Positions 1 through 39,867 of a stretch of DNA of 64,000 nt are shown piece by piece. Each line of letters opens with the position of its first letter. Positions within the stretch are counted from its first letter, which is position 1. This stretch comes from Bacteroidales bacterium (GTDB lineage: Bacteria > Bacteroidota > Bacteroidia > Bacteroidales > ML635J-15). Under the pieces are notes generated by a model. It saw only the letters and a list, made by a program, of their open reading frames with translations. It was not told the DNA's origin and made no database searches. Position numbers and translations under genes: made by a program. The stretch covers positions 12,129 through 76,128 of the forward strand of contig JAFZRE010000007.1 in the NCBI GenBank assembly GCA_017620015.1, in the 5' to 3' direction.

Positions 1-1052
1 TGGTTGTAGTTACTTGCACTATAATAACTATTGAATACAGCACCATGCATACCATCTGAATATTCAAGAATACCAAGTTCTTCTTCATTAGCAGTGTTCA
101 TACTTATAAAATCCCAGCAGCCCTGACCATGTTCGAAGTCTTCTACAAATGGGAACTCAGTAATTCCAGCTTCGCAATTGAAAACATCAACAGTAACATT
201 AACGGTTTCTGAACCATACTCGTTAGTAACAGTCAATGAAACATTATGAGGACCTTCGGTATCCCACACAACATTTACGTTAGCAGTAGTTGCTGTTGCA
301 GGAGTACCGCCTTCAAATGTCCAAGCGTATGTTACATCAGCAACACTTACAACTGACGATTTAATACGAGCCGACTGATTCAACTTTACAACGTCAGGCA
401 GAAGAATTTCAACCATGGGAGCAGAAGTTGCAGACGGACAACTAGATGTTGCAAAATTGTAATATGCCTGGGCAGAATTACTTAGAACACCGTACGTTTG
501 ATAAACAAATCCCGATGGGCAGAACAGATATACTCTTGGAACATATCCATCATAAATAGAAACATTATATACGAGGTTTGTTGTAGCATCGATAATTGGA
601 ATAGGATTTGTTCCACCATTTGTAAAGTCGCCAGCAGATTGTGTTGCTGCAGTACTTCCTGCATTAGTTCCTGAAATCTGTGCTGCAGTATTGGATGTTT
701 CTCCTTCTACATATAACACTACGAATTCGTTGGTTCCGCCCTGACCGTATGTATTATAGAGGCTCTCTAAGGTTCCTGTTCGATGGAAACTATAGCACGG
801 ACTACACCATGCGCAGAAAAAGTCAATCACAACATATTTTCCCTGATCCAAATAGTCTTGAATGTTGTGGGAAACACCATCCATGTCGGTTGCTGTAAAA
901 TTAGTAAATGTACCCCATTCCGAAGCTCCACGAGTACCACGCTCCATCCTTGCATTTTCATCCACGCACAGGATTTCGTTCTTAGCTACACCTTGTGCAA
1001 ACATTACGCTTGCAATAAGTACAGACACAACAAAAAGTAAAATTTTCTTCAT
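1..1052 (-). CDS. secreted thioredoxin-fold (TlpA/redoxin-like CxxC) protein fused to PKD-like and MAM/choice-of-anchor-J-like modules; the C-terminal part runs off the window
   Basis: Absent from the ORF track because there is no stop inside the window. My own reverse-complement translation from the ATG at 1052-1050 gives MKKILLFVVSVLIASVMFAQG (signal peptide), GKYVVIDFFCAWCSPCYSFH (thioredoxin-fold CxxC), YAWTFEGGTP...HNVSLTVTNEYGS (PKD-like) and FPFVEDFEHGQGCWDF. The frame stays open to nt 3. Confidence 0.7.
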   Translation of the reverse strand, partial: MKKILLFVVSVLIASVMFAQGVAKNEILCVDENARMERGTRGASEWGTFTNFTATDMDGVSHNIQDYLDQGKYVVIDFFCAWCSPCYSFHRTGTLESLYNTYGQGGTNEFVVLYVEGETSNTAAQISGTNAGSTAATQSAGDFTNGGTNPIPIIDATTNLVYNVSIYDGYVPRVYLFCPSGFVYQTYGVLSNSAQAYYNFATSSCPSATSAPMVEILLPDVVKLNQSARIKSSVVSVADVTYAWTFEGGTPATATTANVNVVWDTEGPHNVSLTVTNEYGSETVNVTVDVFNCEAGITEFPFVEDFEHGQGCWDFISMNTANEEELGILEYSDGMHGAVFNSYYSASNYN

Positions 1053-1167
1053 ATAATATATGCCCAGTTATATGCCATCGGACCCTTCGGCTTTTAATTA
1101 GTCAAAATTTGCGATGCCAAATTTAATTATAATTTTTATGCTACAAAGCATTTTTTGTCTTTTTTTA

Positions 1168-5092: not shown

Positions 5093-5322
5093 TACCTATT
5101 TATTATAAGCTTGCTGACACTTGCCTTTCCATCGGTATATATTACCCTTACGAAATATGTAGCGTCAACCATTCCTGCAACATTGAGTGTAAGCGATTCG
5201 TCGGCAACCTGTCTGCTAACAACCAACCTTCCTACCATATCATAAACCTGTACTTCGCTGATCTCAGCGTTTTCAGAAACAATGTTTACATAGTCGCTTG
5301 CTGGATTAGGATATATATTGAG
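5092..5322 (-). other. type A T9SS C-terminal domain (Por_Secre_tail-like) of the Ig-repeat protein
   Basis: The last 76 aa are LNIYPNPASDYVNIVSE...QVYDMVGRLV...ATYFVRVIYTDGKASVSKLIINR. Confidence 0.8.
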
Positions 5323-11777: not shown

Positions 11778-12038
11778 TTAGTAGAGTATCGTAACCGTTC
11801 CTTCGTACGGTTCCTCATCGTTGAACAAATCGATTACATACATATATGTACCTGCCGGCACGAAATGTCCACGATAACTACCATCCCAAGGCTCAGTGTA
11901 TCCCTTCGATGTAAACATCAACTGACCCCAACGGTTGAATATATATACCTCGGCGGCTGGGAACATTTCAATGTTTTCAATTAACCAGGTATCGTTGACA
12001 CCATCGCCGTTAGGTGTAAACACATTAGGAATGCGCAA
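11778..12038 (-). other. type B T9SS C-terminal domain (TIGR04131-like pattern)
   Basis: The last 86 aa are LRIPNVFTPNGDGVNDTWLIENIEMFPAAEVYIFNRWGQLMFTSKGYTEPWDGSYRGHFVPAGTYMYVIDLFNDEEPYEGTVTILY. Confidence 0.85.
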
Positions 12039-21000: not shown

Positions 21001-24000
21001 TCGGTGTTAATTCTTACATACTTTATTGCATCGGTATTTGTAACTACTGCCCCATCGTCGAAATCGTAGAAAGTTACCGACGACTCGTAGCACTGGGTCG
21101 AGCAGTTCAAACCATCGGGTATGAATGTTGTTTCGGCCTGACCGAGCGAAGTTTCAATTGTATAAGGTTCGGGGTTAACTTCAATGTCGGAACCTGTACC
21201 ACCGACTGTTATCGGACGGCTATCGCCAACACATATTTCTCCGAGTGCAAAGTTGCTGATATTTGTATCCAAGCCGTTCGATACGCGGATTCTACCGTGA
21301 GCCACCGATGAGCAATATCCTTCGGTAACAGTAAGTGAAACATCGTAGCCCTGCTGAGCATCAGGAGTATATGAAGCGTCCTGCGTAGTTACAACGTATG
21401 GCGGAATTCCACCGTGAGGATTTACGCTCCATCTCCACGTAGGATTGGTATAACCAGTCTGCGTTCCTCCCATATTTACACCAGAACCGAGGCACACATC
21501 AAAATAGTATCTTCCGCCAATCTCCTCTGTGTATCCTGTCATTGCAACAGTAGCATCGGGGCAGTTTATTTCGCACATTGGAGCATTAATATAAGTGATT
21601 CTTTCGCAGTTGGTGGTTGAAGATACAAACGCAGCTCTAATGGTATGTTCCTGATTATCGCCAGTGATTCCGCTCAACGAGTACGAAATTGGGCTTACGA
21701 AAGGCGGATAGAACACCTGCGATATAGCACCGTCGGATATTGTCAAAGTACCATCTACTGGCGGGTCGGTAAAGTTGATGTTACCGCTAACCGTGAATGT
21801 CTGGTCTGCAGCGCAGTCACCAACAATTGTAGTAACACTTGTAATGTTACAGTCGTTTACAATAGTACAGTCGGAACGACCAGAACCAGACTGAGTAATG
21901 TTGGACTGAACTATAGATATTTCACCTGCACAGTTTGCAAAGTTAGCAACCAACAGCACATAAATCTCGCCTTCCACAGCATTTTGAATCTGCAAATATT
22001 CGACAGCCGAAGTTGAGCCACCGAAATCGACCAGATTGCCAACCGGCTCTGCCAATGCGTATGTACTACAAATTGCAGAAGAAGTTGTGGTTGATGAAGT
22101 CGGAGTTACTCCATTATAACTTGGTCCGTAATACGAAGCCTGGTCTGCTCCCGAATAATAAGAATATGTTAATCCGGAAGGCGTTGACAAGTCGTTTGTA
22201 ATGTCGCAGGTTGGGTTGTCGAAAGGTCCCCAGCAGCCGAAATCGACATCACCGCAGGACGATATTGTCATTTGTATAGGTCCCGTCTGTGATACACGCA
22301 GGTACCACCAAGTAGGATTGTCGAAGAAGGAACACATACCATCCAGATTTTCAATCTCGGGATCATTCGACTCTACCGTCAAGTCGTAACCCGTACTTTC
22401 ATTCGTAGCACAGAAAGCCATGGCCGATTCGCAGTCGGAACTACCTGTGATTACCGGCGGCTGGTCAGAGAAAATTGCATATAATGTTACATCTGCGCAG
22501 CCCAAATCGACAGTAGAACCAGCATTATATGGTGTCCCAGAACCATTAGCAGCAGTATTCCATCCTATGAAATATGGCAGGCTCGAACATGTAGGTTCAG
22601 TTGTCGTAACTACAGCCGAAGTTCCTGTTACACTTGCTGGTGCGGCACTTGCAGTACCCGAACAACCAGAAGTTGTATTATATGTCAACCTATGCGATGA
22701 GCCAGAAACAGTAACGGTATAAGAACCTGATGCTCCGCAATATCCGTTATAAGAATCAACTCGTGCGGTAATGACGACAGAACCAGAACTATGAGCCGTA
22801 ACAACACCAGTCGAAGACACCGACGCAATACTAGGATTTGACGAAGTCCAAGTAACTGTACCACCTGTTACAGGGCTAAGCGTATATGACTGCGAAGTTG
22901 TTCCCGTACAACTTGTTATATTGACCGTGGAATTATTAAAAGTCAAAGTTCTTTGGTTACAATCTTCGATACATATCTTTGTATTAGGATAGTTGGCTGA
23001 CAGTGTTCCTGAAGGAGGAGATGCCGGGTCAACATCAGAACCATCAGTATAATAATACAATGTTGTATTGCCCGAACCTGCAGTATAATAGAATGTATAA
23101 GAAGTTCCATCGTAAGCGTCGGAATTATCATCAATAGCAATTACCAAATTGCCAGTTCCATCGTAATAGTACGGGTCAGTCAATGTGAATGAGTTCCATC
23201 CCGAAGAACAGTTAAGAGGACCGGAATAAACAAGTGTCAAATCCGACAAAGGAATCCATGACGTTGAAGATGCAAATGCTGAATTTGATGTCTCTCCCAT
23301 ATATATATTGACATTTGTCTTGGATGACATCGCCGTAGTATAGCAATAATTGAATCCGATGGAAGTAATATCACCAGCTCCAGTTGACATTGGGAAAATA
23401 TACTGGTAATATCCGTAGTGGTAAAAATTATTTACAGGACCGTATGAGTACGAACATGTAGTTCCATCACCTATCCTAGCGCATCCATCGTTTACATTTA
23501 CAACAAGATTCACCACCTTACTGCAATAGTCGGAATCGGAAGATGTGTATTCAATTCTTATTGTAGCAGTTCCTTCCGTCACAGCGGTTATAACACCGTT
23601 CGAACTTACTGTTGCGACACTAGTATTCAACGATGTGTAAGAAAGTGTTCCTGTAGGATAAAGCTGATTTGTAAGGCAATTCGAGATATTATAGGTACTC
23701 CCCTGTGTGATATTTATTGAGCTTGGGTTAAGTGCGAAAGTACCTGTAGGCTGTGTACAATCGTTTGATATACAGAACTGTGTGTTTGGATAATTTGCAG
23801 CAAAACTTCCTGTCGGTGGAGATGCCGGGTCGGGATTAGTACCATCCGAGGTGTAATACAACATTACATTTGACGAACCTGTAGTATAATAGAAAGTATA
23901 ACTTGAACCGTCATAATTTCCGGAATTATCATCTATTGCCACCACAAGATTATCCGTACCATTGTAGTCAAAAGGAGCTGCGAGTGTATATGTATTCCAT

Positions 24001-26130: not shown

Positions 26131-26364
26131 TTACTCCACAACAAACCTTTCAACATATACCCTGTCGCCAGAAATAAACCTTGCAAAATAAACGCCAGGC
26201 TTCAGGTCGTGGTAGAACTCCATTGTCATTCCTTCGTCAACATAAATGTCGCGAACATCAACGATAGCACCACTTGCATCAACAAGCTGATAAACGACAT
26301 CACCGCTTATGCCAGCAAAGTCAACCATGAAGCGACCATCGTTAGGATTCGGGTATAGCGATGC
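26131..26364 (-). other. type A T9SS C-terminal domain (Por_Secre_tail/TIGR04183-like pattern)
   Basis: The last 77 aa are ASLYPNPNDGRFMVDFAGISGDVVYQLVDASGAIVDVRDIYVDEGMTMEFYHDLKPGVYFARFISGDRVYVERFVVE. Confidence 0.8.
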
Positions 26365-29300
26365 AGAAACAGCAACCTCATCGGCAACCGACACTGCAAT
26401 ATGCCTGAACGTAACTTCTATAGTGTGATTGCTGTCAACATCTGCAAACTCGTAGGTATTTCCATCGGTAACAACATATTCGCCGTCAACAAAGACACTG
26501 TCGAGTTCGTATCCGATGTACGGGTTGAAAACAAATACCTGCGAAGCACCCGGCTCAAGTTCTACAACTCCCGACGGTGTAATAGTTCCGTGAGCACGAA
26601 CCGTTGCCGTAATAAAGTATGCAAACGTCCTGAACGAAACATAAATGTAATGGTCTTCGGTGACATTCTCGAACCTATAGGTATTACCATCCACCTCCAC
26701 TTCGTGACCATCGACCACTACCCTGTCAAGCATATAGCCTTCGTCGGCTTCGAACGTAAATTCAATGTCGTCGCCGTTAAGCACATAATTGATACCTTCC
26801 GGTTCTATCGAGCCGTGAGCACCCACAACGGAAGTCACAGACCACATAGGTAGCAAGTCGAAGTTTACATTCACGACATGGTCTTCAAGCACATTCCCCA
26901 AAGTATATGAATTTCCACTAAACTCTACACTTACACCATCGACAAGCACTTCCGAAGCTGCATATCCCACATTCGGGTCAAACTCAATAGTAAGGCTTGT
27001 ACCTTCGTCAACCAATACTTCGCCCGACGGAGTTACGCTTCCGTGTGCACCAGCAATCACAGTAACAATATGTTTGTCGGCCTCAAATGTCGCCGAAATT
27101 GTATGATTTTCGGTTACATTCTCAAACATATATTCATCGACAACTGCGATTGGCATTCCGTCAACCGACAAGGATGCAATGTGGTAGTGTTCATCTGGAA
27201 CAATCTGGAAATTCTGGTTTTCACCATCTATTACGCGAACACGACCACCCGGCAAAATACGACCATTTTCTCCAGCCGTAGCCACAATTTCATGACGAAC
27301 AATATCCATCGGCACGAATACAGCGACAACGACATGGTCACTAGCCACACTATCAAGTACGTAAACACCATCTCCAGCTTCAACTATCTGGTTATCAACC
27401 ATAAAGTTAAATAATTCGTATTCATTATCAGGAGCAAACTCGAATGTTATGTCATCTCCATGATTAACCACAATAGAACCGTTTGGAGTAATTGTTCCTC
27501 CCTGTGCATATGCTACTACTGTATATGTATTTAGCTCGAATTCAGCACTGATTGTATGAGCCTCGCCTACTTCCTCGAAAGTATAAACACCGCCCGAAAG
27601 TTCAGCAGTTACATCGACACCATCAACCATAACCGAAGCAATATGATAGCCGCCATCGGCAACAATCGCAAACGACTGGTCTTCGCCGCTCAAAACAGAA
27701 ACTTCACCATTTGGTGTTATGGTTCCGTGTTCGCCACAAGTTGCAACAATCGTGTAGTATGTATTTTCTACAAACGAAACATGTACATTATGGTTTGCTG
27801 TTACATTTACGAAATTATATACATATCCATTTGCCACAAGCTCGTCGAGAGCATTTTCACCATCCACTACAAAAGCATGTACCCTGTAGCCATCGTCTGG
27901 GATAACAACTATCGACAAGTTTTCGCCTTCAATAACAGACACATCTCCGCTAGGATTAACCGTTCCGTTTGCTCCAGCAGCAATATGTACCGTATGGTAT
28001 ATTATACTTTCGAATACAGCTACGACAGTATGGTCGGCTTCAATATTCTCCAGAGTATAAATGTAACTTCCAGGCTCCAGGTCAACAGCTTCGCCGTCAA
28101 CCATTATTGCGCCAAGACGATAGTCGGAGTCGGGTATCGCAACATACGAAACGCTCTCTCCCCTATTCACTACGGTAACACCTTCGGTCACAATCTGTCC
28201 GCCTTCGGTAGCCGACGCAGTAACAACATAACGCTCGGTAAATGTTGCCACAAGGCTATGTTCGGCATTTACATCAGAAATTGTATATGTGCCATCAACA
28301 ATGTCGGCGGTTACATCTTCGCCGTCCAATGTCAGCGACAGCAACTCGTTATATTCATCGGGAACAATAGCGAAATCAACGCTTCCGCCAGGAGCAACTT
28401 CGAGCATACCGTCAGGGGTAACAGTACCGCGACCAACAGCAGAAACATCGACTACATAGTCGGAAACATCAACCTTGAAATCATCGACATACAGACGATA
28501 CATATACGGATCCGACTGACATACAATTGCAATTCGTACATCCTGTCCTGCAAATCCGGAAAGGTCAACTGGTCCGTATGTCTGGTATGTTTCGTTGTTT
28601 ACAGTCAGCGAATCCAACATTACCGTCTCGCTTTCATTTGAGACATACACCGAGAATGTTTCGGGATAAGAGAAATTACCAACACGATATTTGAATTCCA
28701 ACTTGGCATTACGTATTATTGAGAGCATTGGAGAAGCAAGATAGTCGTCGGCCTGATTCATCATAGAGAACGAATACATAGCCTCTCCATTGTCAATCGA
28801 CCAAGTCCTATTATCGTGGTTGTAATCAATTATGTCCCAACAATCAGTTTCTGCGGCAAAATCCTGTATGTAAGGAAGTTCGTAAGCTCCGCATATAGTC
28901 GAGCTACCTGTTTCTGTCCAACCAGATGCACCGCAATTAGACTGCACATATATATAATAATAGGTATGGAAGTGCAATCCTGTTATAGACGATACATTTC
29001 CGACAACGCCATCGAAAATATCACCAGTTTCTATTTCCGGGTCAATAGGCTGCGACGAAACCTTCAGATTGTAGCCAGTTTCGTTGTATATCTGAGCAAT
29101 TGTCAGCTCCAGCGAATCGGGAGCCACGTCAATAGCAATGTCGTCAACTGTTGGATTCGGACAAGAGTTCTCGTCAACGCTTACATTTATAGCCCATGTC
29201 TTACGCAGTCCATTTTCGGCAGTCACAACATACTCTACCAGGTTGGTGAAATCGCGAGGCTCACCAGACTGAACATTTACAGTTGCATAATCAGAAATAG

Positions 29301-32300
29301 TAAATTCAGGAGCCAAATCTGTCAGATCCGTTCCATATACGACTCCGACATTGACTGTTGCATTTTCGGCATCAATTTCAGAATAGGTCTGGTTTGGAAC
29401 TTCAAAAGTAAGAATATCGTTCTCACCTCTCATTTCCCTAATTACAACATTGTCAATCGAACATTCGCGGTAACCATTGAGTGAAAAATCGAACCTTGCC
29501 ACACCATAATACGGCGGAACTGCAACCGAAATCCTAACCATGCCGTTTTCATCTGCATTCTGTATTGGGGTTGTTATCAATGTATTAGAAAACATATCTT
29601 CAGTAACAAACATAACAGACAAGTTATCCGGAGTTGAAACATAAAGAGCAGAAAGTTTCACATCAAATTCGAGCATATATACATACTCATCGGAGAAACT
29701 GAACCAAGGTGAATTCAAGTGCGAATTGCCCTGTACATTGCCAGGAGCTACGTATGCTACAGAATTTCTTGTCACCCAGACACTTCTTCCAATGCTTGTT
29801 GATTTCCAACAAGTAGGCAAATTACCATCGGCGACATTAAAGTCCTCACTATAAGGCAAATCGAGCGGCAGACAGTCGGTTGTAGCATAAATGTCAGCAC
29901 TATACCAATCACTCTCCATTCCAGCTGCGCAAACGCCTTGAATTTCGGCAGAGATATTGTATGTAACACCAGACTGAAGTCCCGTTATATTCAACTGCGG
30001 TTCATCAACCGAAGTTTCAACCACATCGCCTCCATCAAGCGAATACCTTACAGTCCATGTACCCTGAATTGCATTAGCATCAGCCCAAGCCAAAACGACA
30101 CTATTCTCGTCTTCCGACTCTACAATAAGATTGCTCGGGGTAAGGCAGTCAACGGTCTTCTCTACTTTCAGGTTGTCAACATATACGCCACCTGCATTGT
30201 TTGCCTTTCCGACCAGTATCACATAGCAAGTACCTACCAAACCCCTTGCATTGAAGGTGTATGTGTACCAACCTGCTTCTTCTTCCGCTGCAACGCCAGC
30301 ACTCTCGGTCTGATAGTTCTTCGAGACATAGCCAAGCATCTGCGGAGTACCGTTGACAATGTTAGGATAAGTGTTAACCCAAATTTCAACACCTTCGTCC
30401 GACGAAGCCTCAGAAGCCGTAGAACGATATACATCAAGGCTAATGTCGTAGCCATTAAAACTTTGTGCAAATAGCATTCCGATAGATGACAGATTATGAA
30501 CTGAACCGGCCTTGGCATCGGCAAGCATAGCCTTTGGTGTTGTATTTTCGCCAGAAGCCGAAGTTGCCCACATCCATGCACCGTTTGCATAGCCAAGTCC
30601 AGCTCCCGAACCGGCAGCCGTCCTTTCCTGCGACCAGCACTGCGGCGGGAATGTTTCACCATCAAAGTTCTCGACAAACGGGAACTCCCTGACTATCGTA
30701 CATTCGGTAGTAATATTCAATTCTGCGAAATCAGAATATGAACCACCACAAACAGAACGCACCCTTACTTCGTATTCCGTTGAAATCTGAAGTCCAGACA
30801 ATGTAACGAAAGGTTCATTAACAGTAAGCGATGAGTATTGCGTCTCTCCCACTTTCCTGTACTGAACATTCCACTGTGTCATATTGAAACCTTCCCACGA
30901 CAAGGTCGCTTCAACATCGTAAACTTCGACAGCAGCCAAATCTTCCGGCATCTGGCAGGATGCAATGGTAGATGTTGCAATATGCGACCATTCGCTTGCG
31001 CCCGACGAACTGCAGTTTGCACGAACATAGATGTCGTAACGTGTTGACTCCGAAAGTCCAGTAATCGCATAGTTCGGATCATTGACAACAACCTGTGTAC
31101 CTTCTGAATCAACATCGAAGCCTTCCAAACCGTATTTCAAAGTCCAGTTATCGTCAATATTGTACGACGACCAGGAGACATCAAGTTCGTTCTGCAATCT
31201 TGTAGCACGCAAATCGTCCACAGCATAACAATAAGAGATTCGCGTTATCTGGATATTGTAGTTAATGTCATCTCCATAAGTATCAATAATTACATACGAA
31301 GAACCTGCTGGCAGGTCAACTGTCAAGGTTTCCGAACTGAGAATATCGGTGCTGTAATCGACAATGTACGAAGCAAGCGTTCCGCACGAATTCATTACAA
31401 ACACGCTATAGCCCTCGGTTGTAGAAGAAACATTTATGCTGAGCCTCATCATATACGGCAAGTCAATCCTATATACAGCATCGTTTCCTTCCAGAACAAG
31501 CGGATATTCAAGATTGTAGGTATTGTACATATTTAACATACCAGCCGTCGATGATGAATGCGAATAAGGCAAATCGTTCTCGGCATCGACAATGTACGGA
31601 TTTGTACAGTCGGTACCAATAGACGAATCGCCGTAAGAAACATTAACAGTCCAGAACTTTACCGAATGGTCCTCGGCAGTTACTGCGAACTGCCGTGGCG
31701 ACGAGAAGTCGTATGCAGTTCCGTTAGTATGGTTAATTGTTGCCAGACTTGAGATTCCAAATGTCGGGCTTACAGAAGCAATGTCGTACATACGGCTGAT
31801 AACAGCATCGACGGTTGCATCTGCAGAATTGATGTCAACGCTTATCAAGCCATCAGTCCAGAACGAAAGAATCTCTGCCTCCGAAGAAACGGGAAGCCTT
31901 GTTGCCGTTACAGTCCACTCCTGCTCTGTGCCGTCTTCTGACGATACAACGTAAACAAATGGAGAATTAAGATTTATGTAGGAATTCGATTCCGGGCTTA
32001 TTGTTGCAAAGTCTGATACCGTTACAGTCGGCTTAACAGTAGTCAAGTCCATTGAATACGGAACGCTACATGTTACAGTATGGTTGTCGGTATCAATCAC
32101 GGCATCAGCCATACCTGCAAACGTAAACGAAATTATATCGTTCTCCTTTGAAAGTGGCACAATTGCAAGATCGTCAACTGCAGCAGGCGGATTATAGGCA
32201 TATGAAGAACTATTTTCCCAGTGCAGAACAAAATAATAATCACCAGCATTGGACATTTCTACATCTTGAGTATGGTAGTCCCATTGAGTACTATAGGAAG

Positions 32301-35300
32301 ACAACTCACCGCTTGCAGGAATCCAGCTACTCGGAATAGAAGATCCACTAAACGATGGATACGATGAAGCAGGCACAATATATGCTGTCAGATAATCAGT
32401 ATAACCATTACTTTTCCAGTCGAACGAAACATGAACGACTGTCCTGACATCAATGTGGAACCTGCAATATGCGTATGAAGATGAAGATGAACGGATATAT
32501 GAATTAGACAATCCACCATCCGACGATATATATATCGACTTGTCGCCACTTAATGCCACAGCGTTTCCAATATACCAACCATTAACTTCGTTGCTGAAGT
32601 TCCAGTTTTCAATTACTTCAGAATCGAAATCCTGATAATAAGGCAAAGTTACCAAGTTGGTTGCTGGAGTTTGGAAGACATAATCCGTCCATTCGCTCAT
32701 TTCGCCCAACGCACAGTTCGAAGATATGTATGCGTGATATGTCTGCCCTGCCGAAAGTCCCGACTGGTAATAGCCATTATAAGTAACAGTTGTGTAAGCA
32801 GCCGAAGCAAGCTGAGCATCGGTCATCTCCGACTGCGAAATATACACATTGTAATTGTCGTACTGATATGGTTGCTCCCAGTTAAGATAAACCGAATTGT
32901 TATTTACAACCGCAGAAATCTCAAGTGGCGGTTCGCATGGCGGCAATGTGGTAATGTCAGATGCACGCATCCAGATGCCCTGGTCAGATGCAGAACAATA
33001 CGACCTTATGTATATATTATAGTGAGTATTCATATTAAGCCCCGTCACAGTAGCAGGACTTGAAGATACAAGGATAGGCGTTTCTGTTGCATTTTCAGGA
33101 GAATCTGCTTCGGTAGCGAGAATCTGCCACTGCGTAGCAGGTCCTATGGTTGACCACGATACATCTACCGAAGTCTTGTTCACATTGTCAACATTTATTT
33201 CGCCATAGAATATGCAGTCGGTAAGATAGGTAACACTTATATTGTCAATGGCAGCAGGTGGATCGCGTCTGTCAGCTGGCTGGTCAATCCAGAAAAATAC
33301 CAAATAATAATCTCCAGTCTGAACCATATTCAAATCATAAATATTTGTCTGCCAGTCAGAACCAGATCCTGGATAATAATAGTTACACATATAAACCGGG
33401 TCTGCAACATCTATCCAACCATTTGGAGTAGGACCATTATATCCGGAATAAACATACATTCCATTTGTATTACCTGCATTAAACGACGGATTTATGGATA
33501 CCGGTACAAGAAATGCCCTCATGCAATCCAGATAGTTACGTCCATAGCACATCCAGTCGAACTTCACCCTTACTACACCTTGATGGTCAATATTCAAACG
33601 GCAATATGCATACGAATAGTTGTGATATGAATTCCTATTATAATATGAATATGACACACCATTATCATACGATATGTAAAGAGAACTTTCTCCATCTTTA
33701 GCAGTAGCCTTTCCCCAATACCAACCTGTCGAGTTATTATTTATAGCCCAGTTTGTCATAATACCATCCTCAAAATCCTGAGTATATGGCAATGGCATAG
33801 CCACCAATTCCGGCGTTGCAAATTGGAAATGTACCCAGTCACTGTGTTCCCCATTTCCACATTCAGTAGCTGCATATAAATGATAGGTCCGTCCTGGAGT
33901 CAAACTATTAAAAGTATAACTCCTTGAAGTCGTATTTGAATATGTTTCATCAGCAAGCTGCGCATCCGTTTTCTCTGTTTCGGAAAGCACAAGGCGTGTT
34001 CCAAGCCTATTATAAACATTATACCACATAACTCTGGCAGAAGTCTTGGATACAACAACGTTGAAATCGTAAGGTGGCAAACATGGCGGATATGTAGTGA
34101 AACTACAACGCTTCCACTCGCTCCGCTCCGATTCTGAACATTTTGTACGAACAAATGCATAATATTGAGTATTAGGCTCAAGTCCGTTTATAGTAACTGT
34201 AGTATCGTTTGCCAAAACTATGGATTCCGTTGCATTCGACAGGTCGTCCGACAATGACACAAGCACTTCCCACTGCATAGCATCATCATCATTATTCTTC
34301 CATACTAGCTGCGCCCATGTCTGTCCAAGGGTATTATAAGTTACATAATTAACAGGCAAACATGAAGGCAATGTTGTAAAATCGTTGTCACGCCACAAGC
34401 CCTTGCTCGATTCGGAGCAGTAAGCACGCACATACACATTGTAATCGGTCTCCATCATAAGGTTGGTAACAGTTGTCGATGTTCCCTCCACAAGAATAGG
34501 AGTTTCGGTTGCATTATCGGGGTTGTCGGCAGTTGTCACAAGAACCTCCCACTGCGAAATATCATCGCTGTCGTCCCACGAAATATCAGCCGATGTCTTA
34601 CCTACATTGGAAACATATACATAACCATTGTAAATACAGGTAGTAACAACCGAAACACTTACGTTGTCGATTGCGGCAGGCGGCTGGTTGCCACTCCAAT
34701 CATTGTTATACCAGTAAAATACCACATAATACAACCCTTGGTCCAATGTAATATTTTTTGACAATGTATTCCACGAACTTGATTGGTTCAACTGTCCGTT
34801 ATCAACCATAAACCAACCGCTTGGACGACTGGAATAGCTTATTCCATTAGTTTCGTCCGCAGCAAACGACGGCATGCGCGAAGCAGGCACTATGAGAGCA
34901 CGCAAATAATCGTATCTGTCGTATCCAGCACATTTCCAGTCGAACGACACATTCACAACACTCTCCTGCTCCAGATTAAATGTAAAATATGCATACGAAG
35001 CAGAAGTAATATTTGTGTTATATATATTACTAGTTCCTCTATCGTTAGAAATATACAGAGAACGAGAACCTCCATTACTAGTAGCATGTCCCGAATACCA
35101 GCCGTTAGACCCATTTTCAAATACCCAGTTGCTAGAGAACACCCCTTCAAAATCGACAGAATACGGCAATTCTACAGAAACTGGCGGTGTTTTGAAACTT
35201 ACACTTTCCCAGTCTGAATAGCCAAAGTCGCCGCAATATGTACGCACATAAGCATTGTACTGCGTATTCGGTGTCAGTCCCGAAATAGTTGCCGAAGTTG

Positions 35301-38300
35301 TATTTACACTCACCGGCGTTTCCGTAGCAGGGTCATCAGAAGCTGTAACGACAACCTGCCAATTAATATCATCTACATCAGGGCTTTCCCACGACAAACT
35401 TACCGAATTGGACGAATAATCGTCGATACTTAAATCATCGACAGGCATACACCTGTCAAAAGTTCTAAAATGAATGGCATCGCTCCACGGACTCTGGCTC
35501 GACGAAGAGCAATACGAACGGACATATACATAGTAGTCGGTTCCCGAATTAAGGTTAGAAATCGTTGTCGATGTACTGTTTACAAGTACAGGTGTTCCCG
35601 TTGGCGATGATGCCGAAGTCGAAACAAGCACCTGCCACTGCGTAGCAGTACCATTCGGGTTCCACGAAACCGATACCGAAGTCTTGTCGTAATCATCCAA
35701 ACTAACATTATCGACAATGAAACAATTCGACAACTTTTCCACCCTGACGTTATCGACTGCCGCAGGCGGCTGAGAGCCAGCACTACCATCATTCTTCCAG
35801 AAAAATACAAGATAATAAGGACCAGCATCCTCTATGTTAAAATTAGCGGAACTACTTTGCCAATCACTCTGGCCATTTAGCAGCCCACCTACTTGCGAAA
35901 CATCAATCCAACCAGACGGAGCATCATTTGTCCAACTGTACATTCCGTTAGAAGAACTTAGGGTTGGATTTAGAGATACAGGTATCATAAACGCACGAAG
36001 CAAATCAAAGCTACTCTCTCCGTAGCACTTCCAGTCAAACGACACCTTGATTACGCTTGCTTCATCAACATTCAACTTGCAATAAGCATAGGCATACGAC
36101 TGTGAGCTTGTATTATATTCGTTCGATGCGCCATCATTTTTTGAGATATACAATGAATAGTTTCCACCATTTGCCGTTGCCGTACCGATATACCAACCGT
36201 TTGTATATCCATTCGTAATCGTCCATCGGTCGGCAGTTCCGCTCTCAAAATTCTGAGTGTATGGCAACGAGAACGGCGCATAATCGGTAACAAACCCAAG
36301 CGCACTGCTCCACGAGCCTACTCTGTATTCGCTACAATAGCTACGAATGTAGGCATAGTATTGTGTTTCCGATGACAAACCTGTTATGGTCTGAGTTTCC
36401 GAAGTCATCTCTACTGGTGTTTCGGTTGCAGATGCCGGGTTTGACGAAGTAGTGACAAGTATTTCGTACTTTACTCCGCTGCCCGATGTACGGGAAAGCG
36501 TAACCGACTCATGATCCAACGCGACAATGCTCAAAGTCGAGGCATCCGCACAAGGCACGGCCACCTCAATGTCATCGATAGCTATTGGTGGCTGAGACCC
36601 ACTGGTTCCATCATTTCTCCAATAAAATACAAGGTTGTACTCACCAGCCGTTCCCACGTTTACCGTTTGTGAACTTATCTGCCAAGTTGATTTTAAATTC
36701 AACTTGGATCCGCCATCGACAGCAATCCAACCGGAAGGTGCTGCGCTATTATAAGTTATGCTGTTTGCATTCCCTGCAGTAAGAGTTCCCACAGAAACAG
36801 GTACAAGGAAAGCTCGCAAAAAGTCATAATTACTTTCTCCGTAACATTTCCACTTAAATGAAACAACATAGTTGCCAGCACTATTAAAATTCAAGTTTCG
36901 ATATGCATACACACTAGAAGCTGCAGATGCAACAGTATAGGCATTCGACGAACCGTCATTAGTGATATACAGAGATTTGGAAGAGCTGCTATAAGTTGAA
37001 GTTCCTATCATCCAGTAGTTTGTCTGCGAACCATTAGCCAAAGCCCATTTTGCATTCTCGGTAGTATTTTCGAAGTCGCAGGTATATGGTATTGTTGTTG
37101 GATTATCCAAAGTTCTAAACGCAACCGCACTGCTCCATGGCCCATGCCTGTATTCGCTGCAATAGCTGCGAATGTAGGCATAGTATTGCGTAGCAGGAGT
37201 CAAACCTGTTGCGGTATAAGTTGTAGAAGTAATCGCGACAGGTGTTTCGGTTGCTGTTTCTGGATTCGACGAAGTAGAGACAAGTAATTCGTACTTCACA
37301 CCACTGCCCGACGTACGAGTAATTACAGCCGACGTTGTCATAGGCGAAGCTACGCTTATTGTAGCCGTAGCCGTACAAGGAGTAGCAACCTCTATGTCGT
37401 CGATAGCTATTGGTGGCTGAGACCCTCCATTCCCATCATTTTTCCAATAAAATACAAGGTTGTACTCACCAGACGTTTCCACGTTTACCGTTTGTGAACT
37501 TATCTGCCAATCTGAATGGACATTCAACTTGGATCCGCCATCAACAGCAATCCAATTCGTAGGAGTATTCGTTGTTGTTATACCATTACTATTTCCTGCA
37601 TTAAGCGTTTCCACAGAAACAGGGACAAGGAAAGCTCGCAAATAGTCATAAATACTTTCTCCGTAACCTTTCCATTTAAACGAAACAACATAATTACCAG
37701 TACTAAAATTCAAATTACGATACGCATATACACTAGATGTTGATCCATTATTATAAGAGTTTGACGAACCGTCATTAGTGATATACAGAGATTTGGAAGA
37801 ACTGCTATAAGTTGAAGTTCCTATCATCCAATAGTTTGTCTGCGTTCCGTTATCCAAAGCCCATTTTGCATTTTCCGTACTATTCTCAAAATCACAAGTA
37901 TAAGGCAAAGAAGCTGGAGTCGTCACATATTTAACACTTATGTCATCAACCGCAACTGGCGGCATAGTTCCCAGCGAATTGTCATTTCTCCAGTAAAAAA
38001 CAAGATTATATTCGCCTGCTGTTGAAACCGTTATACTCCTTGTTTCGGACTGCCATTCCGATTGCAAATTAAACCTATCACCGCCATCGACAGCAATCCA
38101 ACCCGATGGAGCCGCAGAATTAGCACTTATGCTGTTTGTATTTCCGGGCGTAAGCGTCTCTACCGAAGTCGGAACAAGGAAAACACGCAAATAGTCGCAG
38201 GTGGACTCTCCGACTCCCTTCCACTTGAACGAAACCTTATACGTACCCGTGCTAGCAAAATTCAAGTTACGATATGCATACACGCTAGAAGCGGCAGATG

Positions 38301-39774
38301 CAATAGTATAAGCATTCGACGAACCATCATTAGTGACATACAGCGACCTTGAAGAACTGCTGTACGTCGATGTTCCAATCATCCAGTAGTTAGTTTGTGC
38401 ACCATTTGCCAAAGTCCATCTGCCATTCTCAGTAGTATTTTCAAAATTGCAAGTATATGGAATAGATGCAGCAGGCTGCAAATACCTTACACTTACATTA
38501 TCGACGGCAGCAGGCGGATTGTACGAACCACCTTGATTAGAACCATCGGACCTCCAGAAAAATACAAGGTAGTACGTTCCTGCCTCAGAAACCGATACGG
38601 TTTGCGACTTGGTCTGCCAATCGGACTGTGCACCAAGAGCAGAACCGCCATCAATGGCAATCCAACCAGTCGGAGTTGTACTTGTAGCAATGTTGTTCAT
38701 ATTTCCAGTCGATTGCGACCTTCCAGCCAAATTAGGCGACAAGGATGAAGGCACAAGATATGCACGAAGGAAATCGAACCCGGATTCACCTAGACATTTC
38801 CAATCAAACATGACCCTATAATTTCCCGTTGATGTGAGATTCAACTTTCTGATTGCATAAATATACTGGTTTGCACTATTATACGAATTCGAAGTACCAC
38901 CGTCGTTTGAAACATAAAGCGATTTGGAGCCTCCATTGTTAGTCGACGAAGCTATGCACCATCTATCAATAGCATTACCAAATGACCATTTCCCATTCTC
39001 TGTAGTATTCTCAAAATCACAATAATAAGGAAGCGATGCTGCAGCACCAGCCGTCTTTGTCGGATCCGGTGTAAATGAATAGTAGCGACCAGAACCAGGA
39101 TGCACGCCATACAAATCATCCAAATAATCAGTTGAGTAAGTTGCAGTCTGATCACTTGGGTTCACATGCCAGAACTTGCTGGCAGAAGCATTTACCAAAC
39201 CAATCTGGTAATCGCTCGGCACAGCCGTATAATCAGAGCCATACACTATCCTAATTTCATTAGAGCCCTGATACAATAGTATCTGAAACTGAATATAATT
39301 GGTTCCCGAAGAACTCGAACTTGTATGCAAAAGAAACTCTACCACCCTTACATAGGCATTATTGCTAGAAGTTCCAAGCAATCCTGTTTTCACATAACCG
39401 GCAGCACCTGTTGACATATCCTTTCCCACTCCGACAATCTTAGGAGTATTGCCATTGTAATTGGCGTTTCCCAACGGTAAATAATAACCAGTCCCACTAA
39501 TGACAGTACTACCAAGCCGCAAATTACCATTGGAATTGACAGAAAATTGAGTATATGAAACTCCATCATAAACGAATGAGAAACCGATGTCGGTCAATGC
39601 CGAAGCATAATCGTCCTTCCCTGCTGGTATAAGTTCCGTAAACGTCGGGGAATAAAACGAGCCATTCGTTCCTGTCACAAATCCATAATTTTCAAGTCCC
39701 TGTCCCAAGGTTGCAGTGCCAAAAGACAACACCGCCATCAAAAACAAAATACCAAAGCGTATTTTTCTTCTCAT
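26131..39774 (-). CDS. giant (about 4547 aa) modular surface protein: NIDO-like N-domain, 11 MAM/choice-of-anchor-J-like modules, about 13 FN3, Ig-like modules, 9 InlB-B-like repeats, type A T9SS CTD
   Basis: Uninterrupted ORF. The track ORF extends to 39798, but that codon is TTG; the first ATG (39774) gives MRRKIRFGILFLMAVLSFGTATLGQG. The recurrent module is (L/I/F)P(Y/F)xxxFE...W...Y....S...SLY(I/V).NDG.S......YAY..L.......V.F.WK..GE...D.LRAFLVP...PPAA(V/I)D(N/D). FN3 units end Y.(Y/V).(I/V)R..C....S.WS. The C-terminus is LYPNPNDGRFMVDF...GVYFARF. Confidence 0.9.
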   Translation of the reverse strand: MRRKIRFGILFLMAVLSFGTATLGQGLENYGFVTGTNGSFYSPTFTELIPAGKDDYASALTDIGFSFVYDGVSYTQFSVNSNGNLRLGSTVISGTGYYLPLGNANYNGNTPKIVGVGKDMSTGAAGYVKTGLLGTSSNNAYVRVVEFLLHTSSSSSGTNYIQFQILLYQGSNEIRIVYGSDYTAVPSDYQIGLVNASASKFWHVNPSDQTATYSTDYLDDLYGVHPGSGRYYSFTPDPTKTAGAAASLPYYCDFENTTENGKWSFGNAIDRWCIASSTNNGGSKSLYVSNDGGTSNSYNSANQYIYAIRKLNLTSTGNYRVMFDWKCLGESGFDFLRAYLVPSSLSPNLAGRSQSTGNMNNIATSTTPTGWIAIDGGSALGAQSDWQTKSQTVSVSEAGTYYLVFFWRSDGSNQGGSYNPPAAVDNVSVRYLQPAASIPYTCNFENTTENGRWTLANGAQTNYWMIGTSTYSSSSRSLYVTNDGSSNAYTIASAASSVYAYRNLNFASTGTYKVSFKWKGVGESTCDYLRVFLVPTSVETLTPGNTNSISANSAAPSGWIAVDGGDRFNLQSEWQSETRSITVSTAGEYNLVFYWRNDNSLGTMPPVAVDDISVKYVTTPASLPYTCDFENSTENAKWALDNGTQTNYWMIGTSTYSSSSKSLYITNDGSSNSYNNGSTSSVYAYRNLNFSTGNYVVSFKWKGYGESIYDYLRAFLVPVSVETLNAGNSNGITTTNTPTNWIAVDGGSKLNVHSDWQISSQTVNVETSGEYNLVFYWKNDGNGGSQPPIAIDDIEVATPCTATATISVASPMTTSAVITRTSGSGVKYELLVSTSSNPETATETPVAITSTTYTATGLTPATQYYAYIRSYCSEYRHGPWSSAVAFRTLDNPTTIPYTCDFENTTENAKWALANGSQTNYWMIGTSTYSSSSKSLYITNDGSSNAYTVASAASSVYAYRNLNFNSAGNYVVSFKWKCYGESNYDFLRAFLVPVSVGTLTAGNANSITYNSAAPSGWIAVDGGSKLNLKSTWQISSQTVNVGTAGEYNLVFYWRNDGTSGSQPPIAIDDIEVAVPCADASTLSIVALDHESVTLSRTSGSGVKYEILVTTSSNPASATETPVEMTSETQTITGLSSETQYYAYIRSYCSEYRVGSWSSALGFVTDYAPFSLPYTQNFESGTADRWTITNGYTNGWYIGTATANGGNYSLYISKNDGASNEYNTSSQSYAYAYCKLNVDEASVIKVSFDWKCYGESSFDLLRAFMIPVSLNPTLSSSNGMYSWTNDAPSGWIDVSQVGGLLNGQSDWQSSSANFNIEDAGPYYLVFFWKNDGSAGSQPPAAVDNVRVEKLSNCFIVDNVSLDDYDKTSVSVSWNPNGTATQWQVLVSTSASSPTGTPVLVNSTSTTISNLNSGTDYYVYVRSYCSSSSQSPWSDAIHFRTFDRCMPVDDLSIDDYSSNSVSLSWESPDVDDINWQVVVTASDDPATETPVSVNTTSATISGLTPNTQYNAYVRTYCGDFGYSDWESVSFKTPPVSVELPYSVDFEGVFSSNWVFENGSNGWYSGHATSNGGSRSLYISNDRGTSNIYNTNITSASYAYFTFNLEQESVVNVSFDWKCAGYDRYDYLRALIVPASRMPSFAADETNGISYSSRPSGWFMVDNGQLNQSSSWNTLSKNITLDQGLYYVVFYWYNNDWSGNQPPAAIDNVSVSVVTTCIYNGYVYVSNVGKTSADISWDDSDDISQWEVLVTTADNPDNATETPILVEGTSTTVTNLMMETDYNVYVRAYCSESSKGLWRDNDFTTLPSCLPVNYVTYNTLGQTWAQLVWKNNDDDAMQWEVLVSLSDDLSNATESIVLANDTTVTINGLEPNTQYYAFVRTKCSESERSEWKRCSFTTYPPCLPPYDFNVVVSKTSARVMWYNVYNRLGTRLVLSETEKTDAQLADETYSNTTSRSYTFNSLTPGRTYHLYAATECGNGEHSDWVHFQFATPELVAMPLPYTQDFEDGIMTNWAINNNSTGWYWGKATAKDGESSLYISYDNGVSYSYYNRNSYHNYSYAYCRLNIDHQGVVRVKFDWMCYGRNYLDCMRAFLVPVSINPSFNAGNTNGMYVYSGYNGPTPNGWIDVADPVYMCNYYYPGSGSDWQTNIYDLNMVQTGDYYLVFFWIDQPADRRDPPAAIDNISVTYLTDCIFYGEINVDNVNKTSVDVSWSTIGPATQWQILATEADSPENATETPILVSSSPATVTGLNMNTHYNIYIRSYCSASDQGIWMRASDITTLPPCEPPLEISAVVNNNSVYLNWEQPYQYDNYNVYISQSEMTDAQLASAAYTTVTYNGYYQSGLSAGQTYHAYISSNCALGEMSEWTDYVFQTPATNLVTLPYYQDFDSEVIENWNFSNEVNGWYIGNAVALSGDKSIYISSDGGLSNSYIRSSSSSYAYCRFHIDVRTVVHVSFDWKSNGYTDYLTAYIVPASSYPSFSGSSIPSSWIPASGELSSYSTQWDYHTQDVEMSNAGDYYFVLHWENSSSYAYNPPAAVDDLAIVPLSKENDIISFTFAGMADAVIDTDNHTVTCSVPYSMDLTTVKPTVTVSDFATISPESNSYINLNSPFVYVVSSEDGTEQEWTVTATRLPVSSEAEILSFWTDGLISVDINSADATVDAVISRMYDIASVSPTFGISSLATINHTNGTAYDFSSPRQFAVTAEDHSVKFWTVNVSYGDSSIGTDCTNPYIVDAENDLPYSHSSSTAGMLNMYNTYNLEYPLVLEGNDAVYRIDLPYMMRLSINVSSTTEGYSVFVMNSCGTLASYIVDYSTDILSSETLTVDLPAGSSYVIIDTYGDDINYNIQITRISYCYAVDDLRATRLQNELDVSWSSYNIDDNWTLKYGLEGFDVDSEGTQVVVNDPNYAITGLSESTRYDIYVRANCSSSGASEWSHIATSTIASCQMPEDLAAVEVYDVEATLSWEGFNMTQWNVQYRKVGETQYSSLTVNEPFVTLSGLQISTEYEVRVRSVCGGSYSDFAELNITTECTIVREFPFVENFDGETFPPQCWSQERTAAGSGAGLGYANGAWMWATSASGENTTPKAMLADAKAGSVHNLSSIGMLFAQSFNGYDISLDVYRSTASEASSDEGVEIWVNTYPNIVNGTPQMLGYVSKNYQTESAGVAAEEEAGWYTYTFNARGLVGTCYVILVGKANNAGGVYVDNLKVEKTVDCLTPSNLIVESEDENSVVLAWADANAIQGTWTVRYSLDGGDVVETSVDEPQLNITGLQSGVTYNISAEIQGVCAAGMESDWYSADIYATTDCLPLDLPYSEDFNVADGNLPTCWKSTSIGRSVWVTRNSVAYVAPGNVQGNSHLNSPWFSFSDEYVYMLEFDVKLSALYVSTPDNLSVMFVTEDMFSNTLITTPIQNADENGMVRISVAVPPYYGVARFDFSLNGYRECSIDNVVIREMRGENDILTFEVPNQTYSEIDAENATVNVGVVYGTDLTDLAPEFTISDYATVNVQSGEPRDFTNLVEYVVTAENGLRKTWAINVSVDENSCPNPTVDDIAIDVAPDSLELTIAQIYNETGYNLKVSSQPIDPEIETGDIFDGVVGNVSSITGLHFHTYYYIYVQSNCGASGWTETGSSTICGAYELPYIQDFAAETDCWDIIDYNHDNRTWSIDNGEAMYSFSMMNQADDYLASPMLSIIRNAKLEFKYRVGNFSYPETFSVYVSNESETVMLDSLTVNNETYQTYGPVDLSGFAGQDVRIAIVCQSDPYMYRLYVDDFKVDVSDYVVDVSAVGRGTVTPDGMLEVAPGGSVDFAIVPDEYNELLSLTLDGEDVTADIVDGTYTISDVNAEHSLVATFTERYVVTASATEGGQIVTEGVTVVNRGESVSYVAIPDSDYRLGAIMVDGEAVDLEPGSYIYTLENIEADHTVVAVFESIIYHTVHIAAGANGTVNPSGDVSVIEGENLSIVVIPDDGYRVHAFVVDGENALDELVANGYVYNFVNVTANHNVHVSFVENTYYTIVATCGEHGTITPNGEVSVLSGEDQSFAIVADGGYHIASVMVDGVDVTAELSGGVYTFEEVGEAHTISAEFELNTYTVVAYAQGGTITPNGSIVVNHGDDITFEFAPDNEYELFNFMVDNQIVEAGDGVYVLDSVASDHVVVAVFVPMDIVRHEIVATAGENGRILPGGRVRVIDGENQNFQIVPDEHYHIASLSVDGMPIAVVDEYMFENVTENHTISATFEADKHIVTVIAGAHGSVTPSGEVLVDEGTSLTIEFDPNVGYAASEVLVDGVSVEFSGNSYTLGNVLEDHVVNVNFDLLPMWSVTSVVGAHGSIEPEGINYVLNGDDIEFTFEADEGYMLDRVVVDGHEVEVDGNTYRFENVTEDHYIYVSFRTFAYFITATVRAHGTITPSGVVELEPGASQVFVFNPYIGYELDSVFVDGEYVVTDGNTYEFADVDSNHTIEVTFRHIAVSVADEVAVSASLYPNPNDGRFMVDFAGISGDVVYQLVDASGAIVDVRDIYVDEGMTMEFYHDLKPGVYFARFISGDRVYVERFVVE
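26365..28480 (-). repeat. 9 tandem InlB-B-repeat-like (Flg_new_2-like) modules (protein level)
   Basis: The unit is Y.(V/I)......(G/H)G.(I/V).P.G...V..G.......(P/A)D.GY.......VDG..V.......Y.F..V...H.(I/V)...F. I counted 9 units. Confidence 0.7.
36290..38470 (-). repeat. tandem ~0.82-kb DNA repeats (MAM-like module plus or minus FN3) with stretches of near-identity
   Basis: For example, 36950-37030 versus 37765-37845 (GACGAACCGTCATTAGTGATATACAGAGATTTGGAAGA.CTGCTATAAGTTGAAGTTCCTATCATCCA.TAGTTTGTCTGCG) differ at only a few positions. 36575-36740 versus 37395-37560 are also closely similar. Confidence 0.75.
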
Positions 39775-39867
39775 ATCAATAAATTTTATTCGTTTCAAAT
39801 CCTAAAATCTCATTCGGCAATCATAGCCATGAGCAAACAATACCTCTAATAAAAAAATAATAGCGCG

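Follow-up and report, generated by a model that had tools for sequence, protein, structure and literature searches.

The window analysed here is a 64,000-nucleotide (nt) stretch of Bacteroidales bacterium DNA (assembly GCA_017620015.1, contig JAFZRE010000007.1, positions 12,129 to 76,128 of the forward strand), and all coordinates given below count from its first letter. We examined giant 2, a minus-strand gene of this window whose open reading frame (ORF) spans 26131..39798 and whose likely start, the ATG at nt 39774, gives a product of 4,547 amino acids (aa). Giant 2 is an intact gene with predicted Sec and type IX secretion system (T9SS) targeting. Its product carries eleven modules (M1 to M11) which, judging from profile comparisons, are one homologous module type in two variants, interleaved with fibronectin type III (FN3) units. 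We regard it as an ordinary T9SS putative adhesin of great size, belonging to a class that is known and widespread.

Gene integrity and domain map of giant 2

The frame of giant 2 is unbroken across 13.6 kb and includes both a signal peptide and a T9SS tail. The C-terminus scored 30.6 bits with TIGR04183, the T9SS type-A sorting domain, and so passed the cut-off of 23; PF18962 reached 25.8 bits on the same tail, just below its cut-off of 27. Giant 2 thus possesses both the signal peptide and the TIGR04183 domain by which T9SS type-A cargo is recognized.

A long repetitive ORF in a metagenome assembly could be an assembly artefact or a decaying pseudogene, and both the origin and the architecture of giant 2 fit such a reading. 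The 90%-identity cluster to which it belongs also contains shorter products of 55, 322, 2,054 and 2,463 aa, all from short contigs. Against it speak the 13.6-kb frame with its two secretion signals and the recovery of the same product elsewhere: a 4,535-aa form, which is giant 2 counted from the M13 start chosen by the gene caller, was called residue-identical on five contigs, one of which (ERZ28654058 XIEF21-1_SAMN15830046 scaffold_112) showed 100% identity to the window at all fetched loci. Since the internal DNA repeats of giant 2 are only 62-85% identical, repeat collapse is unlikely as well. The same cluster holds NCBI MBO4874035.1, a 4,547-aa 'fibronectin type III domain-containing protein', and two collinear orthologues are full-length, at 4,496 and 4,949 aa, which also argues against it. 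From the uninterrupted ORF, the presence of both secretion signals, the identical products on five contigs and the divergent repeats we conclude that giant 2 is intact. We therefore dropped the artefact or pseudogene reading, which we consider extremely improbable; an earlier, sequence-only reading of this DNA had named a pseudogene as the outcome that would overturn it, and the five identical products and the full-length NCBI cluster member answer that concern.

The features of giant 2, from its N-terminus to its C-terminus, are listed below. Modules M1-M8 are of class A and M9-M11 of class B, as defined in the next section, where the independent profile is also described.

26131..39774 (-): whole gene giant 2, stop codon included; predicted 4,547-aa T9SS cargo, from the ORF list and translation
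39697..39774 (-): signal peptide MRRKIRFGILFLMAVLSFGTATLGQG, aa 1-26, read from the translation; same start in orthologues
39043..39696 (-): N-terminal domain of RemA type, 218 aa, aa 27-244; trimmed profile A4 against PDB 8gl6_D, without a Pfam model
38473..39042 (-): class-A module M1, from aa 245; motif and profiles; choice_anch_J 18.6 bits, below cut-off
37918..38472 (-): class-A module M2; motif and profiles
37378..37917 (-): class-A module M3, to aa 799; motif and profiles; M2-M4 read as a lineage-specific triplication
37102..37377 (-): FN3 unit 1, aa 800-891; Pfam fn3 and self-built profile
36553..37101 (-): class-A module M4, aa 892-1074; motif and profiles; MAM 18.0 bits, below cut-off
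36277..36552 (-): FN3 unit 2, aa 1075-1166; self-built profile
35731..36276 (-): class-A module M5, the modelled copy, aa 1167-1348; AlphaFold2 (AF2) and Foldseek
35179..35730 (-): FN3 units 3-4, aa 1349-1532; Pfam fn3 and self-built profile
34645..35178 (-): class-A module M6, aa 1533-1710; motif and profiles
33802..34644 (-): FN3 units 5-7, aa 1711-1991; self-built profile
33223..33801 (-): class-A module M7, aa 1992-2184; motif and profiles
32656..33222 (-): FN3 units 8-9, aa 2185-2373; self-built profile
32152..32655 (-): class-A module M8, aa 2374-2541; motif and profiles
31633..32151 (-): two DUF5018-type Ig-like modules, aa 2542-2714; PF16410 43.7 bits over two stretches, PF22243
31231..31632 (-): segment of ~135 aa without a family, aa 2715-2848; conserved in orthologues P0001, P0005, P0016 and P0096
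30694..31230 (-): FN3 units 10-11, aa 2849-3027; self-built profile
30151..30693 (-): class-B module M9, aa 3028-3208; independent profile E 8.6e-12, full length; no curated match
29869..30150 (-): FN3 unit 12, aa 3209-3302; self-built profile
29407..29868 (-): class-B module M10, aa 3303-3456; independent profile E 1.1e-8, full length; no curated match
29155..29406 (-): third DUF5018-type Ig-like module ('DILTFEV'), aa 3457-3540; PF16410 27.1 and PF22243 24.4 bits, both below cut-off
28888..29154 (-): FN3 unit 13, divergent, aa 3541-3629; self-built profile
28447..28887 (-): class-B module M11, a genuine choice-of-anchor J domain, aa 3630-3776; NF038128 59.9 bits
26380..28446 (-): nine InlB B-repeat (Flg_new_2) units of ~76-80 aa each, aa 3777-4465; PF18998 125 bits over five stretches
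26134..26379 (-): T9SS type-A C-terminal sorting domain, aa 4466-4547; TIGR04183

The sequence-only reading had put the FN3 domains at about 13, with none to three after each module. Both figures hold: a self-built profile identified 13 units in giant 2 (E 1e-20 to 1e-32) and none elsewhere in the window, and the units following M1 to M11 number 0, 0, 1, 1, 2, 3, 2, 0, 1, 0 and 0. The self-built profile is circular for its own member units; independent support comes from Pfam fn3 (PF00041), which scored 200.2 bits over eight stretches (cut-off 25). Other parts of the map needed correction. Two Ig-like modules do lie between M8 and M9, at aa 2542-2714, but their total in giant 2 is three, and the module recognizable by 'DILTFEV', which had been placed in that same interval, sits between M10 and M11 (aa 3457-3540) and resembles the other two. 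The segment at aa 2715-2848 had been called PPC-like, a label that we rejected: Pfam at E<=0.1 over aa 2542-2860 returned DUF5018 families only, without a match to the PPC model, and the best match in a PDB sequence search with aa 2715-2848 was an unrelated protein (E 0.063). Overlooked altogether were the N-terminal domain and the nine InlB B-repeats, seven of which start with the motif G(T/S)(I/V)xPxG while two more starts were read from the translation.

The N-terminal domain is homologous, on the evidence of profile searches, to that of a Flavobacterium johnsoniae RemA-family adhesin. Profile A4, which combines the giant 2 domain with five database relatives and is trimmed to the domain, matched residues 23-229 of PDB chain 8gl6_D ('RemA', 1,436 aa) with E 3.3e-15 over profile positions 2-206 of 208; the untrimmed profile gave E 4.6e-17. 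The link to RemA depends on the profile, and the N-terminal sequence of giant 2 alone fails to reach RemA. Pfam found nothing on aa 27-244, and AF2 gave no usable model for it (pLDDT 35). RemA is a T9SS-secreted gliding-motility adhesin (PMC9127263), and 8GL6 originates from a study of the F. johnsoniae T9SS translocon in which RemZ, a RemA homologue, is named as trapped substrate (PMC10994853). The kinship extends no further than the N-terminal domain, with the T9SS-targeting tail added by analogy; the class-A profile gave no match to the RemA chain 8gl6_D.

Eleven modules of one type and their curated relatives

The pattern (L/I/F)P(Y/F)xx(D/N)F(E/D/N/A) matched giant 2 exactly 11 times, at aa 248, 438, 623, 895, 1170, 1536, 1995, 2377, 3031, 3306 and 3633 (nt 39033, 38463, 37908, 37092, 36267, 35169, 33792, 32646, 30684, 29859 and 28878). 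These are the eleven module starts that had been proposed from the sequence alone, each within ~10 nt of its proposed position. The first eight modules had also been set apart from the last three and given a PPAA-type end motif, and this division was confirmed: PP(A/I/V)A(I/V)D(N/D) ends M1-M8, which share 34-81% mutual identity and constitute class A, and M9-M11, with 19-25% mutual identity, constitute class B. The class-A signature reads LPYxxDFE, SLYISxDGGxSNxY, FDWKxxGE..D.LR and WxNDGSxGxxPPAA(V/I)DN. Across M1-M8, 31 columns are invariant, none of them Cys.

With profiles built from the protein itself (eight against three sequences), the link between the classes was limited to 13 N-terminal columns. 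Deep alignments, comprising 591 class-A domains from the 150 best database proteins and 21 class-B domains, extended it over the whole domain (hhalign probability 96.2%, E 2.3e-9, 145 columns). Further evidence came from an independent profile of 315 class-B-like domains, from which giant 2 and its orthologues had been excluded and which has no class-A overlap. All eleven modules were matched full-length by this profile (E 4e-5 to 5e-16). It also matched the N-terminus of the neighbouring gene giant 1 (E 5.6e-18) and, over no more than the first 32 positions (E 0.0024), a copy in a thioredoxin-fusion gene that the window edge truncates. In the six-frame translation of the window nothing else was matched, the next best ORF having E 0.65. 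Because the profile matches these copies alone, we count 13 module copies spread over three predicted secreted proteins. The two copies outside giant 2 are:

24669..25172 (-): module at the N-terminus of giant 1; choice_anch_J 49.2 and MAM 35.6 bits, and independent profile
3..170 (-): start of a module, truncated at the window edge, in the partial thioredoxin-PKD fusion; independent profile, with Redoxin and PKD upstream

Both of these occurrences had been anticipated by the sequence-only reading. That the modules might fail to match each other in profile comparison, which it had allowed for, is contradicted by the hhalign result.

The same reading had labelled the modules MAM/choice-of-anchor-J-like. 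This kinship is real at the level of the superfamily, but in giant 2 only M11 passes curated cut-offs. NF038128 (choice_anch_J, cut-off 30 bits) was passed by M11 (59.9 bits) and by the giant-1 copy (49.2 bits); its full-length alignment with M1 scored 18.6 bits (E 0.0017), below the cut-off. The MAM model PF00629 (cut-off 26.4 bits) was passed by the giant-1 copy (35.6 bits) and by no module of giant 2, the best being M4 with 18.0 bits in a full-length alignment. When scanned singly at E<=10, M5-M10 matched neither NF038128 nor PF00629, and M4 did not match NF038128. Neither choice_anch_J nor MAM was found on M2 and M3 in whole-protein scans at E<=0.01, the sole scans covering them. M11 was the sole match of Cleaved_Adhesin PF07675 (cut-off 21.4), at a sub-threshold 16.4 bits (E 0.0089). 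Among 40 diverse class-A relatives (<40% mutual identity), choice_anch_J matched four, weakly (best E 2.8e-5), and MAM matched one (E 0.0057). Against PDB sequences, no meaningful relatives were returned for the class-A profile, for M11 or for the giant-1 module.

The independent profile is related to NF038128 through its two best matches in the window, M11 and the giant-1 copy, which pass that model. Homology to choice-of-anchor J was thus found by profile methods for all eleven modules, through the independent profile and the hhalign comparison of the two classes. Two of the three carriers also have a C-terminal sorting signal, giant 2 a type-A tail and giant 1 a CHU_C type-B tail. Class A is, as far as these alignments tell, a distinct uncurated sister subfamily in the choice-of-anchor-J/MAM jelly-roll superfamily.

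Relatives, array evolution and genomic neighbourhood

When 1.84 billion representatives at 50% identity were searched exhaustively by HMMER, the class-A profile identified 4,011 relatives at E<=1e-3, 3,190 at E<=1e-10 and 1,233 at E<=1e-30. A word-indexed protein search with M5 had given no match at all; since the exhaustive search found 4,011 relatives, this blank reflects a limit of the index and not rarity. The best 150 of the 4,011 are mostly 1,000-6,700 aa long with 2-14 class-A copies each; FN3 units of the same type occur in 132 of these 150, and many have T9SS-like tails. A scan of one genome per species detected the class-A module in rumen and gut Bacteroidales metagenome-assembled genomes (MAGs), Paludibacteraceae, Candidatus Aphodosoma and Flavobacterium, a list of taxa that is a lower bound because the scan relied on one narrow peptide pattern. 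The species of the window is not among the scanned GTDB representatives, and the best match was 67% identical. The class-A family hence extends over at least 4,011 clusters at 50% identity and is without a Pfam or NCBIfam model or a solved structure. The module expansion stressed in the sequence-only reading is real as regards the eleven copies but not special to the window, given these clusters and the collinear orthologues of giant 2. No new kind of system is revealed, and the design is common in the phylum.

The orthologues are P0001 (a cluster including the full-length 4,949-aa member), P0005 (4,496 aa) and P0004. In common with giant 2 they have the signal peptide and N-terminal domain as well as the entire C-terminal half, in the order Ig-Ig-unassigned-FN3-FN3-B-FN3-B-Ig-FN3-B, followed by the InlB repeats and the tail. 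They differ in the N-terminal half, with six to eight class-A modules and varying numbers of FN3 units. In a neighbour-joining tree, modules group by array position across species into the clades M1, M2-M4, M5, M6, M7 and M8, the last one, which includes P0001.m8 and P0005.m6, being looser. M2, M3 and M4 are 66-81% identical as protein, and their DNA repeats are 75-85% identical. These data indicate that M2-M4 arose by lineage-specific triplication of one ancestral position and that the order of the array has been conserved across species, with local duplication.

Within the modules, the loop corresponding to M5 residues 100-150 is less conserved than the core. In 6/7 pairs of positional orthologues, loop identity was 13-53% vs 41-77% for the core; the exception was M3 vs P0001.m2 (loop 76%, core 74%). 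Between paralogues, the loop averaged 27% identity and the core 45%. Because the variable loop is not conserved between positional orthologues, position-specific specificities are not demonstrated by this pattern.

On the minus strand, giant 2 is followed after a gap of 248 nt by a gene for a 195-aa secreted protein and, after a further 11 nt, by giant 1 (11778..25283, -), an SprB-like protein of 4,501 aa with a choice-of-anchor J/MAM module, CUB, Big_2, SprB repeats and a CHU_C type-B tail. The locus thus appears to encode an SprB-like and a RemA-N-like giant protein side by side. Giant 1 further contains two copies of a ~170-aa unit that starts with C..IG.GT and includes Y.P...F..Y.Y.Q.I(Y/F)P, and no PorP/SprF-like partner gene adjoins it. 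The 195-aa ORF (25295-25882, -) includes a signal peptide and a Pro/Ala/Asn-rich tail of low complexity, and it matched no Pfam family; its exact sequence occurs only on the five contigs that carry giant 2.

The window as a whole is dense in predicted T9SS surface proteins. The gene at 5092-8301 (-) encodes a 1,069-aa T9SS type-A cargo protein that is nearly all Ig-like (Ig_3, I-set, Ig_2, Ig_7) and ends in Por_Secre_tail. The partial gene at 3-1067 (-) combines a signal peptide, a thioredoxin/redoxin-like domain, PKD and the beginning of a module of the choice-of-anchor-J type; it is unusual to see a thioredoxin fold joined to modules of adhesin type, with predicted surface display. A few kb upstream of giant 2, precomputed Pfam marks indicate a Fic-domain protein with a winged-helix region (47125-48201, -) and an AAA_14 ATPase (45799-46992, +). 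Beyond giant 1 lies the gene for the 606-aa TypA/BipA (9837-11657, +), a protein found identically in 44 blocks of the collection. On some of the contigs with the identical protein, typA is followed by genes for a DegT-type aminotransferase and a Gate transporter and not by giant 1. A strain-specific island carrying the two giant genes was considered and rejected: these contigs are only 87% DNA-identical and represent a different species, so that the difference in synteny lies between species and is not a strain polymorphism. It follows that the two giant genes lie where synteny breaks down between closely related species.

Predicted fold, proposed role and known systems

AF2 modelling of M5, with the eight paralogues as alignment, gave a confident model, an all-beta sandwich of ten strands (pLDDT 82, pTM 0.85). 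Foldseek returned 150 PDB matches to this model at E<=0.001. Carbohydrate-binding modules (CBMs) led the list (a porphyran-binding CBM, CBM61, CBM22, CBM4, CBM35, CBM6 and CBM16), followed by accessory domains of phage tailspikes, Eph ligand-binding domains (LBDs) and MAM domains, those of LAST-MAM and meprin beta. TM-scores were 0.54-0.61 among these groups and 0.59-0.61 for meprin beta and LAST-MAM. The predicted fold class is that of a CBM/MAM/ephrin-receptor-like jelly roll; from the model, an assignment of class A to MAM rather than to CBM is not clear.

Taken together, these results lead us to think it likely that giant 2 is a T9SS-displayed multivalent putative adhesin of an uncultured gut or rumen Bacteroidales bacterium. 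The protein would be exported across the inner membrane by Sec and then through the outer membrane by way of the T9SS, and would probably become covalently attached to the cell surface via its C-terminus, as other cargo with a type-A tail. The nine InlB B-repeats would provide a cell-proximal stalk and the FN3 and Ig units would act as spacers; along a long fibre, the RemA-like N-terminal domain and all eleven jelly-roll modules would face outward. There they would bind, in a multivalent manner, a polymeric ligand that is presented by plant fibre, host mucus or other cells and is probably a glycan, and giant 2 would be paired in one gene cluster with an SprB-like giant adhesin. Surface anchoring, the geometry of the fibre, any binding and the nature of the ligand are what we infer. 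The sequence-only reading had already spoken of recognition modules forming a multivalent or multi-specific binding array, which is plausible by analogy, given the resemblance of the fold to CBMs, Eph LBD and MAM.

The lead of CBMs among the structural matches would also suit a more specific role, in which the modules are true CBMs by which the cell holds on to glycans of plant cell walls or mucin in order to feed, and not for adhesion in general or motility, each position having its own glycan specificity. Such a polysaccharide-capture array would be in keeping with the weak Pfam CBM_4_9 matches in 2/40 of the diverse class-A relatives, with the closest genomic relatives being rumen and gut Bacteroidales MAGs, and with the conservation of positional module clades across species. 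However, no glycoside hydrolase or SusC/D genes adjoin giant 2 in the window, and no curated CBM model reaches its threshold, CBM_4_9 scoring 16.4 bits on M7 vs a cut-off of 25.9. The lack of loop conservation between positional orthologues speaks against specificity by position, and MAM and Eph LBD match the module fold equally well. We consider this capture array unlikely, if worth keeping in view.

The modules could instead be mainly structural, serving as calcium-stiffened beta-sandwich beads that merely lengthen and rigidify the fibre, with the RemA-like N-terminal domain as the sole functional head. All classes have the DFE motif near the N-terminus and (I/V)DN near the C-terminus, the acidic or Asn/Gly-rich loops are highly conserved, and the numbers of modules and FN3 units vary freely between orthologues in which the N-terminal domain and the C-terminal half are fixed. 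Yet the role of spacer is already filled by 13 FN3, three Ig and nine InlB units, the modules keep their positional orthology across species, and giant 1 has a solitary copy of this module at its N-terminal tip, where a functional head is expected. This explanation seems to us improbable.

Several observations nevertheless weigh against a multivalent adhesin. Surface anchoring is assumed from the type of the tail. The link to RemA is restricted to the N-terminal domain, and a Pfam scan of the whole of giant 2 at E<=0.01 found no lectin family. Foldseek gave moderate TM-scores, and structural domains that bind no ligand fall into the same fold class. The most conserved class-A residues lie in loops common to all copies (SxDxGxSNxY, GE..D and NDGxxGxxPPAA(V/I)DN) and could form a structural metal site and not a ligand site. 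Finally, the rapid divergence of the variable loop fits relaxed constraint as well as evolving specificity.

As a tentative extension of the adhesin reading, and one on which we would place little weight, class A may be an undescribed ligand-binding, probably carbohydrate-binding, family in which the fast loop between strands 7 and 8 sets the specificity of each position. In that case, giants such as this one would serve gut and rumen Bacteroidales as programmable attachment fibres of multi-specific type, which the T9SS would display and the gliding machinery would possibly move. What is new here is modest and consists of two building blocks that are uncurated so far: the subfamily of class-A modules and the N-terminal domain of RemA type. 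Although gut and rumen Bacteroidota abound in giant T9SS cargo proteins, the only annotation that these carry is 'fibronectin type III domain-containing protein'; linking the class-A module and the RemA-type domain to known adhesin families is useful for annotation and for the choice of binding constructs. Negative results of indexed searches with low-identity repeat modules should not be taken as rarity.

Giant 2 can be compared with known systems at the level of its modules and at that of the whole protein. Beta-sandwich CBMs (CBM4, 6, 16, 22, 35 and 61) are the best Foldseek matches of M5 (E 1.7e-6 to 1e-4, TM ~0.55), but sequence identity to them is 10-15% and the modules of giant 2 pass no curated CBM model. 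With MAM domains (PF00629; meprin, LAST-MAM) the modules would share a predicted jelly-roll fold of ~160-180 aa. The MAM family is known for conserved cysteines, whereas class A is without invariant cysteines, and CBMs and the Eph LBD match the M5 fold equally well. With choice-of-anchor J as defined by NF038128, the modules have in common the flanking motifs, the LPYxxDFE start and the (I/V)DN end; class A differs by its own signature (SLYISxDGGxSNxY, FDWKxxGE and WxNDGSxGxxPPAA(V/I)DN).

RemA and RemZ (PMC10994853, PMC9127263) resemble giant 2 in a homologous ~205-aa N-terminal domain placed directly after the signal peptide. The C-terminal domain of RemA targets it to the T9SS, and giant 2 has a T9SS tail; moreover, the protein encoded beside giant 2 is SprB-like, and SprB is the other gliding adhesin known. 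Unlike RemA, which is described as a cell-surface lectin, giant 2 showed no lectin domain in the Pfam scan, and it is three times longer. Another counterpart of the whole protein is a published T9SS cargo architecture, that of putative adhesins combining FN3 with choice-of-anchor J, which share with giant 2 the signal peptide, the interleaving of FN3 with jelly rolls of choice-of-anchor-J type, the T9SS tail and their occurrence in Bacteroidota. Compared with these, giant 2 is far larger (4,547 aa), has 8/11 of its jelly rolls in a divergent subfamily not captured by the choice_anch_J model, and carries in addition nine InlB B-repeats, DUF5018 Ig modules and an N-terminal domain like that of RemA.

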